A DNA stretch of 64,000 bases from Bacillota bacterium (GTDB taxonomy: Bacteria > Bacillota > JAAYKD01). Positions within the stretch are counted from its first letter, which is position 1; the number at the start of each line of letters is the position of its first letter. Positions 8,770-48,958 of the stretch are shown one piece after another. The DNA lies in the NCBI GenBank assembly GCA_963666425.2, contig OY762825.2, forward strand, positions 512,001 through 576,000, written 5' to 3'. The notes beneath the pieces were generated by a model. That model was not told the DNA's origin. It did no database searches and was given only the letters and a program-made list of their open reading frames with translations. A program made the position numbers and the translations under genes.

Positions 8770-9720
8770 AGGACGGAGAGGACGGGGATGATAGTGGGAA
8801 ATGATATGAGTAGAACATGAAGGGTGAGATGGGGACGAGGGACGAGGGACGGAGGACGGAGGACGGAGGACGGAGGACGCGGAATGGTCAAGACCATTCC
8901 CTACATTGCGAGATCGTTGGAAATATGATGAGTAGAATTTGAAGGGTGAGATGGGACGATCGTTGGAAATAAGATGAGTAGAAGATGAAGGGCTAGATGG
9001 GGGCGGGGGGACGGGGAACGAAGGGACGCGGAATGGTCAAGACCATTCCCTACATTGCGTGATAGTGAGAAATAAGATGAGAAGAATGAGGTAGATGAAT
9101 AAAGGCGAGGGAACGGAGGACGGGGGACGGGAGGACGAGGTCAAGGGACGCGGAATGGTCAAGACCATTCCCTACATTGCGTGATAGTGAGAAATAAGAT
9201 GAATAGAACGTGAAGGGTGAGATGGGACGAAGGACGGAGGGACGCGGAATGGTCAAGACCATTCCCTACATTGCGAGATCGTTGGGAATAAGATGAGTAG
9301 AAGATGAAGGGAGGATGAGGACGGAAAGAGAGAAATAAGACAAGTAGAATTTTAAAGGTGAAATGGGGGCGATGAAGAAAATGAATAGTCATTTTTCTGC
9401 ACATTTCCATGTTTGGATTTCTATTCCAACCGGCTACATATTGCAGCCAATTGCCTTCTTTTTTACGAAAGCATTGGTCTGTTTAATCAAAATCGCGAAG
9501 TCGAACTTCTGCCTATTTCTACTTCCATTTTATTCATAAACCATTCGCTTGAAATCCGGGGAACTCCTTTATTTCAATTTAAAGATAATAGATTCTTTTT
9601 GTTTGTTGGTTTATGGTAAGGAAAAGCATGTTATTCCTGTTGTTTTAACATTTATTGTAATGTTAATTTTTGTAAGGACGCGGAATGGTCAAGACCATTC
9701 CCTACATTGCGAGATCGTTG
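8770..9720. repeat. REP cluster A (5 REPs, same orientation) with GGAGGAC-type microsatellite
   Basis: gcggaatggtcaagaccattccctac at 8879, 9028, 9150, 9244, 9680, each followed by attgcg(a/t)gat. Confidence 0.92.
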
Positions 9721-9940
9721 GAAATGATACAAGAAAATATGTGCATATGCAAAACGGCCGGGAATGCTCGATACAGTTAGAGGGTTTCGGCGCATGAACC
9801 CCGCGAATCGCGCAGAATTGGTCTTCTTCTTGATTACAATATAATAATACCTTAATATAATGTGTTTTATTCCGTTAGGTAATAATTGACATTTTCTATC
9901 TATTAATTTAAGATATTTCAAGGTGTTAATTCCAAATTAG

Positions 9941-10615
9941 TTGAAAGGGGTGTTTCGTTTGGTGATCGACTTTCAGTCTGTAAGAAAACAAATTGTGGCG
10001 CTTCTTCCCTGCTATTTACCGGAGGGGGGTAATGGCTGCCGCGTCTTGCTGCGCAACGGTCAGGAGCTTCTCTTTAGAAACCGCATTGCAAAAGTATGGA
10101 ACGACTACCTCATGCTTTGGGGTTTGGCTGACGATGCCCTGGAGCATGCCTATGCCCACGGTAAATTAACCCCGGTGCCGCTGACCAATCAGCATACCTT
10201 TCTTTGTCTGCGCGTGCGCAAGGCATTGGTGCAGGGCGACAGCGTTTATGGTTATATCGAGCACGAAAGCCTCGATTACCCTATCGGCTCCGCGCGGGAA
10301 GCGCTGCACGAAATCACCTGCTGCGGACACCATATTGAAATCATCACCAGCATCGGCCATCTGCAAATGCAGCGCCAAAAGGCAATTGCGGTGCAGCAAG
10401 CCTGGCAGGAATATCATAACAGACCGTCGCAGAAAATGACCGAATCGCTGCTGATGCGGGATTTGCTGATTATGAAGTATAAATTGCTCAGTTTCATTCT
10501 CAATAGTGAACAGCCGGAGCAGCGCCTGACAGAGATCAACGATGATTATGCCATTTTGCAGAACAGAACGGCCGCTTTCCTGCTGGAGGAACCGATTCAG
10601 CCTTTGAGAAAATAA
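9941..10615 (+). CDS. Hypothetical protein, possibly ComK-like
   Basis: 224-aa ORF; ALLPCY..GGNGC..PVPL..LRVRK..GDSVYGYI resembles clostridial ComK-like proteins from memory; start probably GTG 9962. Confidence 0.5.
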   Translation: MKGVFRLVIDFQSVRKQIVALLPCYLPEGGNGCRVLLRNGQELLFRNRIAKVWNDYLMLWGLADDALEHAYAHGKLTPVPLTNQHTFLCLRVRKALVQGDSVYGYIEHESLDYPIGSAREALHEITCCGHHIEIITSIGHLQMQRQKAIAVQQAWQEYHNRPSQKMTESLLMRDLLIMKYKLLSFILNSEQPEQRLTEINDDYAILQNRTAAFLLEEPIQPLRK

Positions 10616-10645
10616 ACAGCCGAATTGGCTGAGAACATATAAAAC

Positions 10646-10693
10646 AGCAAGACAGGTCCTGAAGAGACAAATCTTCGGGGCCTGTCTTGCTTT
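10646..10693. terminator. Intrinsic terminator between convergent genes
   Basis: agcaagacagg...cctgtcttgct stem with A/T tails. Confidence 0.75.
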
Positions 10694-10737
10694 ATGGGGC
10701 GACGTGTTCGGGTGCCCTCTAGAGGAAGTTGCTTGCT

Positions 10738-47456: not shown

Positions 47457-47766
47457 CGCGCTTCACCATCCTTTCCTTAATCAATGCAATTGCTTCGGGA
47501 ATATGCTGCTCCGCACCGGAGACGATCTGACGTCTTGTTTCCTGGTTTTCCAGACTGATCGACTGTAATTTCTCTTCTACGAGAGTCTTACGTTCAGATA
47601 ACAAATGCTCTGCTTCGCTGCGCGCTTGCTCAATGGTTTTTTCCAACTTGAGTGCTGATTCTGTTTTGGCGTGATAGATCAGTTCTTCAGCCTCTGTTTT
47701 GGCTTTTTCCACCGTGGTTGCTGCTTCCTGCTCGGCATTTTTCACCTGACGGAGTATTTCTTTCAT
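47443..47766 (-). CDS. V-type ATPase peripheral stalk subunit (G/H)
   Basis: Charged coiled-coil protein at the start of the operon. Confidence 0.8.
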   Translation of the reverse strand: MKEILRQVKNAEQEAATTVEKAKTEAEELIYHAKTESALKLEKTIEQARSEAEHLLSERKTLVEEKLQSISLENQETRRQIVSGAEQHIPEAIALIKERMVKRVGNR

Positions 47767-47918
47767 AGATACCTCACCACCTTTCCTGCTCCATTTGAAG
47801 TATTAAAGAAAATGAAATTCAGGATCCTCCTCGAGGATCGGTTACACAAAAAATTCGACAAAGCCAGTCAGACTAATAAAAACGATACAATTATACCGAT
47901 AATTCGATATCGATTCAT

Positions 47919-48094
47919 AAAAAAAGATGGACTGAAGAAGCAGCACCCCTCCCGTCCATCCTGAATTGGCTGAGTTGTTAGGATCGCTCCATGCACTCAA
48001 AAACTGACCGCCTTTGCTGTGAGAAAAAGAATTATGATGTCGTGATAAAAATAAGAGACAAGATATAATACCTTGACGCAAGAGACTTTGTCAA
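47919..48094 (-). promoter_or_regulatory. V-ATPase leader: promoter, candidate riboswitch aptamer and terminator
   Basis: TTGACA near 48094; structured segment 47968-48012; gatggac/gtccatc stem + U7 (47919-47960). Confidence 0.55.
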
Positions 48095-48169
48095 GTTCTA
48101 TTATTTGATATTTTGAGTGTTCTACCCGAATTTGCAAGATTCTTTCAATTGCCGTTTTTGGGGCGCAGC

Positions 48170-48958
48170 AATGGGGCGGCGGAGTGGCGGAGACGGGGTA
48201 CGCGGAAGGGTTCTGTGGGATAGCAGTTGCATTTTCAGCACTAAGCGATGGAATAATGATTGCATAGCGCATAACGATGGAATGGCGCCAGAACATCCAT
48301 CACATTTTCAGCGCCATGCGATGGAATAATGATTGCATAACGCAAAACAATGAAGCTACACCAGGACGGGGCACGCGGAACGGTCAAGACCGTTCCCTAC
48401 CTTGCGAGTTGGTTGAAGTAACACCGCAATGTAATGAAGCTACGCCGGGAACGCAGGGACGCCGGGACGGGGCACGCGGAACGGTCAAGACCGTTCCCTA
48501 CCTTGCGAGTTGGTTGAAGTAACACCACAAAACAATGAAGCTACGCCAAAACGGGTTACGCGGAACGGTCAAGACCGTTCCCTACCTTGCGAGTTGGTTG
48601 AAGTAACATCGCAATGTTGCGTGTAGGTTGAAGTAACACCGCAATACAATGAAGCTACGCCGGGACGGGGCACGCGGAACGGTCAAGACCGTTCCCTACC
48701 TTGCGAGTTGGTTGAAGTAATACCGCAATGTAATGAAGCTACGCCGGGGCATCCACCACATTTTCAGCACCAAGCGATGGAATAATGATTGCATAACGCA
48801 ATTGCAGGTTGGAGCAATGGAATAATGATTGCATAGCACGAAATAGGTTGGAGCAAATGTAGGGAACGGTCTTGACCGTTCCGCACGGTTCAATTAACAC
48901 CGCAGAACGATAGAGTTACGCCAGGACGGGGCACGCGGAACGGTCAAGACCGTTCCCT
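48170..48958. repeat. REP cluster H (6 REPs, last one split by IS110; cluster flank resumes at 50455-50535)
   Basis: 48375>, 48476>, 48560>, 48674>, <48859, 48935>; flank cttgcgagttggttgaagtaac. Confidence 0.92.

Follow-up and report, generated by a model that had tools for sequence, protein, structure and literature searches.

In Escherichia coli, repetitive extragenic palindromes (REPs) are assembled into bacterial interspersed mosaic elements (BIMEs), in which two types of REP, one inverted relative to the other, are connected through defined linkers and the tandem copies are well conserved at each locus (PMC3333891). A unit made of two inverted REPs and their spacer is known as a REPIN, or REP doublet forming a hairpin (PMC3337134). 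[quoted passage not shown] REPs headed by GTAG were recorded in 8 phyla by Di Nocera et al. 2013 (PMC3733652); the terms Firmicutes, Clostridi- and Gram-positive are absent from the main text of that paper. In the sections consulted of another survey, Clostridia are mentioned for RAYT group 1 only and high 16-mer abundance for groups 2 and 3 only (PMC5581495). Here we describe a REP and RAYT locus in a 64,000-nt stretch of a Bacillota genome (contig OY762825.2, positions 512,001 to 576,000), hereafter called the window, in which arrays of a short palindrome surround a single transposase gene. We consider it probable that the locus is a REPtron, in which a single HUH/Y1 RAYT of the REP-in-gene subclass lies amid arrays of its cognate REPs and the arrays are built in a BIME-like manner.

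To our knowledge, work on REPs and RAYTs has been almost confined to Proteobacteria. We found no description of REP/RAYT arrays in Firmicutes in the literature searched; part of the searching was poorly discriminating, and supplementary tables may list some. A first-pass annotation of the window had suggested an uncharacterised system. Within the literature searched, that suggestion stands for the arrays in Clostridia-like bacteria and falls for the RAYT subclass with in-gene REPs, which is already described for many phyla (PMC6006769), and we accordingly dropped the in-gene REPs as a novelty. The phylum is poorly covered in the sources consulted, and the BIME-like architecture is unusual in its long variable inner spacers and its satellites adjacent to the hairpins.

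The repeat is a GTAG-headed REP of two types

The window was searched with the degenerate 26-mer GTAGGGAAYGGTCTTGACCRTTCCGC, allowing up to three mismatches. The search returned 47 matches (38 exact, six with one mismatch and three with two), against none in 100 dinucleotide-preserving shuffles of the window. The matches fall into eight groups, at 8879-9705, 14443-15764, 18428-18698, 20399-20876, 21685-22127, 23965-24723, 34985-36330 and 48375-48960. Together with its satellites and linkers, each group makes up an array of about 0.4-1.5 kb between genes, in agreement with the first-pass annotation, which had reported about 47 copies in eight intergenic clusters of this size.

The repeat is a classical GTAG-headed REP. 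It consists of a GTAG head, a 9-bp stem (GGAAYGGTC / GACCRTTCC) closed by a TT loop, and a following GC; the foot of the stem is G-C, G-C and A-T, with two consecutive G-C pairs. The Y and R positions of the stem covary (T-A or C-G) in all 47 copies, indicating that the 9-bp stem is preserved, and one additional stem mismatch is present in each of two REPs (18673 and 36204). The GTAG tetranucleotide at the foot of the hairpin is shared with the REPs and BIMEs of E. coli and with the REPs of subclass 2.4. Unlike the E. coli REP, the window stem is a perfect 9-bp palindrome with no bulge.

Two types of REP could be distinguished, and in the window they are always oppositely oriented. All 32 type A REPs lie on the minus strand and, read on their own strand, have the 3' flank GCGT, usually followed by (A/C/G)AC and a C-rich tract; the C content of the next 40 nt exceeds the 95th percentile of the window in 15 of the 32. 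All 15 type B REPs lie on the plus strand; GCA or GTA comes next on their 3' side, and then a conserved tail.

A single RAYT gene lies between two of the arrays

The features of the gene are as follows.

20979..21455, minus strand: RAYT / TnpAREP gene, 158 aa, with HUH histidines H73 and H75, catalytic Y141, and N145
21174..21200, minus strand: degenerate in-frame REP remnant in the RAYT gene, residues V86-N94, VEQSTSFPN

The product of this gene is a RAYT/TnpAREP-type HUH-Y1 protein. The open reading frame (ORF) is intact, with GGAGG 9 nt ahead of its ATG. It scored 30.3 bits against Pfam Y1_Tnp (cutoff 23), which, together with its position between clusters 4 and 5, supports the earlier call of an HUH transposase gene amid the repeats. 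Of the NCBIfam models, NF047646 (REP_Tyr_transpos) was by far the best at 69.4 bits, compared with 21.3 bits for IS200. The nearest REPs lie 102 nt beyond the stop codon and 229 nt ahead of the start codon, and seven lie within 700 nt.

The best sequence match in the PDB was E. coli TnpAREP (4er8; phmmer E 0.008), in an alignment that begins at the HUH strand and extends as far as the catalytic tyrosine. The AlphaFold model of the protein (predicted local distance difference test, 83.8) retrieved the TnpA proteins of ISDra2, IS608 and IS200 together with 4er8 in Foldseek, with E values of 1e-6 to 3e-8 and 19% identity to 4er8. The window RAYT therefore has the same fold as the IS200/IS605 transposases, with IS608 and ISDra2 the top matches (E ~3e-8), and by analogy both would recognise a hairpin and a 5' tetranucleotide. 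Unlike IS200/IS605 elements, the window RAYT has no tnpB and no defined left and right ends, and one gene stands against many hairpins; neither tnpB nor a second RAYT copy was found in the window. The arrangement is that of the E. coli REPtron, a single HUH-Y1 gene flanked by REPs with WQ...H..R and Y...N conserved, although the window protein is a distant relative of E. coli TnpAREP and is shorter at its C-terminus.

Residues H73, H75, W120, Q121, Y141 and N145 are invariant in an alignment of 36 RAYT sequences. In the alignment to E. coli TnpAREP, the window protein has counterparts of HMH, WQ, H101, R104 and YIYINP, and its residues W120, Q121, D126, H127, R130 and N145 take the positions of W94, Q95, E/D100, H101, R104 and N119. 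The first five of these contact GTAG in the E. coli protein, and N119 is essential (PMC6006769). Judged by the alignment, the catalytic and GTAG-contacting residues of the window RAYT are intact.

The GC content of the gene is 38.4%, against 48.5% for the window, and the RAYT ORF is lower in GC than its flanks at 70 of 74 loci (mean difference -7.2 points; Wilcoxon p 3e-13). The low GC of these ORFs could be due to horizontal transfer, or to mutational or expression bias. A blastn search with positions 20250-22130 against plasmid and phage collections gave no match.

The REP and the RAYT are probably cognate

Loci of relatives were collected from at least 598 matched contig stretches, which yielded 533 tblastn-confirmed hits; the 80 best were kept (L001-L080), the best being 51% identical among the matches listed. 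A relative whose RAYT is 94% identical to that of the window lies outside this set. The reverse complement of the REP, GCG GAA CGG TCA AGA CCG TTC CCT, translates to A-E-R-S-R-P-F-P. Of the 120 best homologues, 57 carry the peptide ERSRPFP in the loop that follows the HUH motif and 8 more have near variants of it; in L001 and L002 the exact 20-nt REP core lies inside the RAYT ORF, at the site of the ERSRPFP loop. The remnant in the window gene occupies this site too and matches the inverted REP at 18 of 26 positions, the best match in the ORF; none of 2000 control coding segments reached 18 (maximum 17).

The same organisation was seen across the family. GTAG hairpins are present inside the RAYT ORF at 64 of the 80 loci. 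As in subclass 2.4 (PMC6006769), the in-frame hairpin lies between HUH and Y at 55 of the 72 loci in which both motifs were located by pattern. At 30 of these 72 loci a hairpin lies ahead of HUH, and all 31 such hairpins are in the plus orientation. The control rate, in 480-nt segments situated at distances above 1.5 kb, was 182 of 1723 (10.6%). Over the 80 loci, perfect hairpins were tenfold denser within 500 nt of the RAYT (1.16/kb; 88 in 75.7 kb) than farther away (0.12/kb; 123 in 1018 kb), and 33 loci had at least one within this distance. The in-gene REP peptides vary by lineage while the hairpin and the GTAG persist, indicating that the constraint acts on the nucleic acid. The stem arm GGAAYG was found in 6 of 22 relatives of at least 40% identity and in 2 of 55 below it (Fisher p 0.006), this split being the only significant one between RAYT identity and stem similarity. 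Many relatives have GTAGGGG...CCC hairpins.

In the relatives, the in-gene REPs are often paired, with a plus copy before HUH (peptide VG...P) and a minus copy between HUH and Y (G...PT). Neither this pairing nor the observation that every N-terminal hairpin has the plus orientation (31/31) was seen stated in the sections consulted of Quentin et al. 2018 (PMC6006769). The exact REP core of the window occurs twice in L001 (8797-8816 and 9157-9176), once upstream of the RAYT and once inside it, the RAYT being AT-rich and set beside GC-rich genes. The contig is binned as Chloroflexi, and its RAYT falls among Bacillota in the tree described below; either transfer or a mis-binned contig would account for this placement.

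Taken at the level of sequence, the adjacency, the REP encoded in the genes of close relatives and the family-wide REPtron organisation argue strongly that REP and RAYT are cognate, as the first-pass annotation had held. The RAYT probably belongs to the REP-in-gene subclass 2.4 (group 4), an assignment set by the described features; the tree described below covers the window RAYT, the loci and search hits. In addition to the in-gene and GTAG-headed REPs, the window RAYT family resembles the subclass in its patchy occurrence in numerous phyla, Cyanobacteriota, Bacteroidota and Chloroflexota among them. It departs from the subclass, described as abundant in Cyanobacteria/Bacteroidetes (PMC6006769), in that 43 of the 80 best of the 533 loci come from Bacillota. 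The window REP, with 47 copies in 40 kb, also departs from the modest 16-mer abundance (14 occurrences) given for RAYT group 4 (PMC5581495).

Organisation of the arrays

The arrays comprise the following features.

8770..9705: REP cluster 1, five type A REPs, all minus; linker family 4 and G-rich repeats of the GGACGGA type
14384..15790: REP cluster 2, 7 REPs; three A'-linker-minisatellite-B units with spacers of 219, 353 and 269 nt; linker family 1
18286..18698: REP cluster 3, 3 REPs; 45-nt minisatellite and 7-nt microsatellite
20268..20960: REP cluster 4, on the downstream side of the RAYT; (GGGATGAC)x13 at 20293-20399, one unit with a 326-nt spacer, plus a truncated unit that adjoins the RAYT stop
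21500..22127: REP cluster 5, on the upstream side of the RAYT, 4 REPs; 7-nt microsatellite x21 (21529-21677) between REP and RAYT start
23965..24830: REP cluster 6, 7 REPs; 436-nt unit duplicated in tandem (87% matches); adjoins tRNA-Ala
34985..36470: REP cluster 7, in the def-priA interval, 13 REPs; linker family 2; includes two headless hybrids
35493..35593: hybrid 'double-tail' REPs at 35493-35518 and 35568-35593, GC-core-GC, lacking GTAG on both strands
48165..48958: REP cluster 8, 6 REPs; linker family 3; CTAC head of the last REP interrupted by an insertion sequence

Seven units, all of one family in clusters 2-6, share the order G-rich microsatellite, REP, conserved linker of ~31 nt, 21/22-nt minisatellite, inverted REP and conserved tail. 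The first-pass annotation had given this order for the repeat as a whole; it was found in these seven units, and the remaining three clusters have other linkers and no minisatellite. Four linker families were defined by the 5' flanks of the type A REPs. Family 1 (…TTGTGCAAG|GTAG) has 11 copies in clusters 2-6, and copies of its 36-nt linker share 96% identity within a cluster and 92% between the five intergenic regions, while families 2, 3 and 4 are confined to clusters 7, 8 and 1, respectively. Of the 39 pairs of adjacent REPs, 18 have the same orientation and 21 are inverted, the latter comprising 11 minus/plus pairs with spacers of 116-353 nt and 10 plus/minus pairs with spacers of 54-125 nt.

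This organisation recalls the E. coli BIME, with two REP types alternating in orientation, family-specific linkers and tandem copies that are alike at each locus. It differs from the E. coli BIME in its inverted-REP spacers of up to 353 nt, where E. coli linkers are short, in the micro- and minisatellites that abut the REPs, and in its Bacillota host. The arrays are better described as BIME-like mosaics with added satellites than as giant composite REPINs.

The latter description was that of the first-pass annotation, and the inverted pairs that it quoted (14443-14705, 14807-15203 and 20399-20768) are present. As in the REPIN-RAYT systems of Pseudomonas (Bertels and Rainey 2011), these inverted doublets can be folded into one long hairpin and are tied to a RAYT that is single, here within the window. 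They differ from Pseudomonas REPINs, in which a short conserved spacer separates the inverted REPs of one replicating hairpin unit, in their long inner spacers of variable copy number and in being mixed with many tandem REPs of the same orientation. The block A'-linker-minisatellite-B might nevertheless be a discrete non-autonomous mobile element that moves whole, either a giant REPIN or a miniature inverted-repeat transposable element, and we regard this as possible, if somewhat doubtful. Seven such blocks are present in five intergenic regions, and their linkers, as noted, are highly alike across regions. In single-strand DNA folding of one unit the two REPs pair over ~26 bp (-55.1 kcal/mol, z -7.1, equalled in 0 of 200 shuffles), but so strong a fold is a trivial consequence of any inverted repeat. 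The inner spacer of the blocks ranges from 145 to 353 nt through the variable number of 21/22-nt units, none of the seven blocks is more than ~7 kb from the RAYT, and neither flanking target duplications nor empty sites are visible. The solitary REP at 9680-9705, with only ~20 nt of linker, implies that a much smaller unit can disperse. The REPIN-like features of this one window amount to 11 foldable minus/plus pairs whose variable spacers are made of tandem repeats; with direct pairs almost as frequent as inverted ones and flanks largely specific to each cluster, no fixed unit emerges.

Two REPs of cluster 7, at 35493 and 35568, are symmetric (GC-core-GC) and lack GTAG on both strands. They have a 'double tail', and in this they differ from the symmetric 'double foot' variants described for subclass 2.4 (PMC6006769). 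Because the core is a near-perfect palindrome, any two REPs count as direct repeats too, whatever their relative orientation, and such headless hybrids are the product expected if the interior of an A'...B pair were lost by exchange between cores. In the same cluster, a 57-nt unit repeated 1.9 times at 36357-36467 holds TTTCCCTAC, a half-REP with its head, and runs into the 3' end of priA.

Satellites adjoin the hairpins

Tandem Repeats Finder identified two classes of satellite, in agreement with the first-pass annotation. Microsatellites of 7-8 nt, all G-rich (for example, 8 nt x 13.4 at 20293-20399 and 7 nt x 21.3 at 21529-21677), always abut the non-GTAG end of a type A REP. By reading, without statistics, their units GGAACGR, GGACGGA and GGGATGAC seem similar to the GGAAYGG arm of the REP and to its junction. 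Minisatellites of 21/22 nt with a super-period of 42/44 nt (for example, x13.1 at 14893-15176 and x12.1 at 20487-20741) adjoin family-1 type B REPs at the GTAG end; the minisatellite units resemble the 5' flank of the REP that they adjoin. A tandem repeat (period 5-60) lies within 40 nt of 21 of the 41 perfect GTAG hairpins in the window, compared with 26 of 302 in the loci of relatives, and tandem repeats cover 4.1% of the window compared with 0.8% of the 80 loci. Comparison of the minisatellite by eye with consensus sequences for cre, IHF and DnaA-box sites gave no fit.

From the model that Ton-Hoang et al. proposed for BIME amplification (Figure 7B, PMC3333891), one could suppose that the satellites are footprints of RAYT action and not of plain slippage, left by repeated nick-primed, rolling-circle-like addition of short flanks. 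We think this distinctly unlikely. If it were true, a domesticated transposase would be making hypervariable tracts before genes, some of them capable of forming G-quadruplexes; the tracts would be contingency loci and would provide length-dependent control of RAYT expression, including through the 150-nt array between the REP and the RAYT start codon.

Evidence against the REPtron reading and alternative explanations

Several observations weigh against the REPtron reading. The RAYT score of 69.4 bits does not reach the NCBIfam equivalog cutoff of 80 for REP_Tyr_transpos, and the foot of the REP has 2 G-C pairs where the 'canonical long REP' of subclass 2.4 has 3 (PMC6006769). The internal REP of the RAYT gene has decayed (18/26) and has lost the ability to form a hairpin, so the function of the RAYT could have drifted. 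Over all loci, RAYT identity and stem similarity were not correlated (Spearman rho 0.04, p 0.76). Finally, flanks are more similar within clusters than between them (0.71 vs 0.47 for the type A linker and 0.85 vs 0.44 for the type B tail) and three of the four linker families are each restricted to one cluster; local duplication therefore fits as well as transposition.

These last points bear on a second alternative, in which the arrays are relics changed only by host slippage and recombination, and the RAYT either does not act on the arrays or serves the cell in some other way. The similarity within clusters, the tandem duplications (a 436-nt unit x2 and units of 75-135 nt), hybrids that are explained by deletion between direct repeats, the decayed internal REP and the NCBIfam score below cutoff would all suit this alternative, as would the argument that RAYTs are domesticated and housekeeping-like (PMC5581495). 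However, the catalytic and GTAG-contact residues are all intact in an ORF with a good ribosome-binding site, 38 of the 47 REPs have no mismatch to the degenerate 26-mer, which argues for recent spread or homogenisation, and one linker is common to five separate intergenic regions. We hold the relic explanation to be doubtful.

We also weighed the idea that the arrays persist chiefly because they serve the host, for example in punctuation or stabilisation of transcripts, as nucleoid or topoisomerase sites, or as G-quadruplex tracts, with the RAYT as a maintainer only, and judged it unlikely. All arrays are intergenic, mostly between co-directional genes, and one lies within the conserved priA / def-fmt-rsmB-rlmN string. 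The window has nine canonical G-quadruplex motifs, (G3+N1-7)x4, every one of them in a REP cluster (8822-48472) and on the plus strand; the minus strand has none. A weak terminator-like hairpin is present in three units in the orientation of the genes, and REPs have been listed as having parts in mRNA stability, in termination and in the binding of proteins (PMC6006769). Against a host function, the content of the arrays is not conserved between clusters, and promoter-like sites showed no enrichment (22 vs 21.8 expected). Terminator-like sites numbered 21 against 11.9 (SD 3.4), ~2.7 SD above the shuffle mean, and a single repeat-borne hairpin accounts for three of the 21. The uneven distribution of REPs among species has also been argued against a general function (Di Nocera et al., PMC3733652). 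GC skew gave no replication direction for the window, since the signal comes mainly from the G-rich satellites and stays flat across the operons, and a scan with Rfam at gathering thresholds returned one tRNA only.

An assembly artefact or a CRISPR-like array is extremely improbable: highly repetitive DNA is prone to misassembly and many RAYT homologues lie on contigs of 1-2 kb, but the window proteins map to a 2.9-Mb contig, the unit copies differ in detail, the 'spacers' are interrelated with REPs in both orientations, and no cas gene was found among the ORFs scanned against NCBIfam and Pfam.

A possible mechanism for array growth

For the REPtron, the following steps can be proposed by homology to E. 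coli TnpAREP. The RAYT would bind the folded REP hairpin on single-stranded DNA and read the GTAG; REPs that are perfect palindromes have been reported to be recognised through GTAG and the loop bases (PMC8266576). It would then cut C|T sites beside an inverted REP or within linkers and rejoin the strands. In E. coli the cleavage sites include CC|TAC within the GTAG complement, and BIME excision, reinsertion and nick-primed amplification have been modelled (PMC3333891). By analogy, cutting and rejoining in the window could lead to excision, to reinsertion in the vicinity of existing REPs and to the addition of units primed by nicks. The A and B REPs, joined by family-specific linkers, are amplified in tandem separately at each locus.

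Host processes may act on the same DNA. Since the palindromic cores act as direct repeats, slippage and unequal exchange could reshuffle the modules, giving the headless hybrids and expanding the satellites that abut the hairpins, and they can account for much of the local structure. Signs of dispersal and reshuffling are the family-1 linker, 92% identical over five intergenic regions, and the hybrids at 35493 and 35568.

An IS110-family insertion and the neighbouring genes

An insertion sequence interrupts cluster 8.

48959..50454, plus strand: IS110-family element, transposase 49249-50421 (NCBIfam transpos_IS110, 262 bits vs cutoff 140)
50455..50535: remainder of cluster 8 past the insertion sequence, CT-AC and then two copies of the family-3 linker

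At its left junction the sequence is ...GACCGTTCCCT|CGTATA and at its right junction ...GCTGGCT|ACCTTGCGAG, where the family-3 linker that normally follows CTAC resumes. These sequences indicate that the element inserted at the CT of CTAC, the GTAG complement, in the REP at 48937-48956. An insertion exactly in a REP resembles the REP-targeting IS110-family elements ISPpu9 and IS621, as these are described, from which it differs in host and in REP. Matches to a bridge-RNA guide between the 5' non-coding region of the element and its REP target were limited to 2 shared 7-mers, a number equalled or exceeded in 691 of 2000 shuffles and not significant. Several near-identical copies of the IS110 transposase map to the same 2.9-Mb contig.

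Other genes of the window were noted in passing. Between REP clusters 5 and 6, beside the RAYT, an AbiEii-type nucleotidyltransferase toxin gene overlaps a DUF6088 gene (22140-23754, minus). At 1303-1972 (minus), just upstream of fabD (2008-2895), three tandem ORFs of 73 aa have ~99% DNA identity and a 224-nt period; by eye they look like small carrier proteins. The 3' end of a TraB/PrgY-family gene (25260-26648) is duplicated just downstream of it, at 25120-25378, in two segments that are 81-91% identical with a spacing of 133-134 nt. An ABC-F protein is encoded at 59763-61391 (minus), scoring 711 bits against the Lsa-family ribosomal-protection model (cutoff 750) and 482 bits against the general ABC-F protection model (cutoff 380).

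Host and distribution of the family

The host phylum is Bacillota, and the class is Clostridia or Negativicutes; the Firmicute host of the first-pass annotation is borne out by the tree and by the names of homologues. In a quick tree of 94 sequences, whose deep branches are weak, the 43 Bacillota rows cluster (4 changes vs 24.4 in shuffles, 0 of 500 as low), and the window RAYT groups with sequences of Oscillospiraceae and Clostridia. Its homologues at 62-67% identity come from Hydrogenoanaerobacterium or Oscillospiraceae, while one source labels as 'Negativicutes bacterium' the metagenome-assembled genome (MAG) with proteins at least 90% identical to the PFOR, RAYT and IS110 transposase of the window. 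From these sequences, the RAYT family forms a large Bacillota clade, mostly of Oscillospiraceae. A HMMER scan with the RAYT returned 21,914 cluster representatives at E <=1e-3, 9,464 at 1e-10 and 44 at 1e-30. Many of the homologues lie on contigs of ~1-2 kb, as expected if flanking REP arrays break short-read assemblies. Around cluster 7 the gene order is priA, the cluster, def, fmt, rsmB, rlmN, PP2C phosphatase, PASTA kinase, rsgA and rpe, and apart from the cluster this order presumably matches that of Bacillus subtilis.

Significance

With a perfect short palindrome, two strictly oriented types, headless hybrids and satellites, the window offers a compact natural record of array growth and reshuffling. 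In practical terms, such arrays would be expected to fragment MAGs assembled from short reads of gut and rumen samples, and they are landing sites for IS110-family elements. The window and the 43 Bacillota loci among the best 80 suggest that the REP-in-gene RAYT subclass radiated in Oscillospiraceae-like anaerobes, where it may be able to build dense and elaborate arrays.

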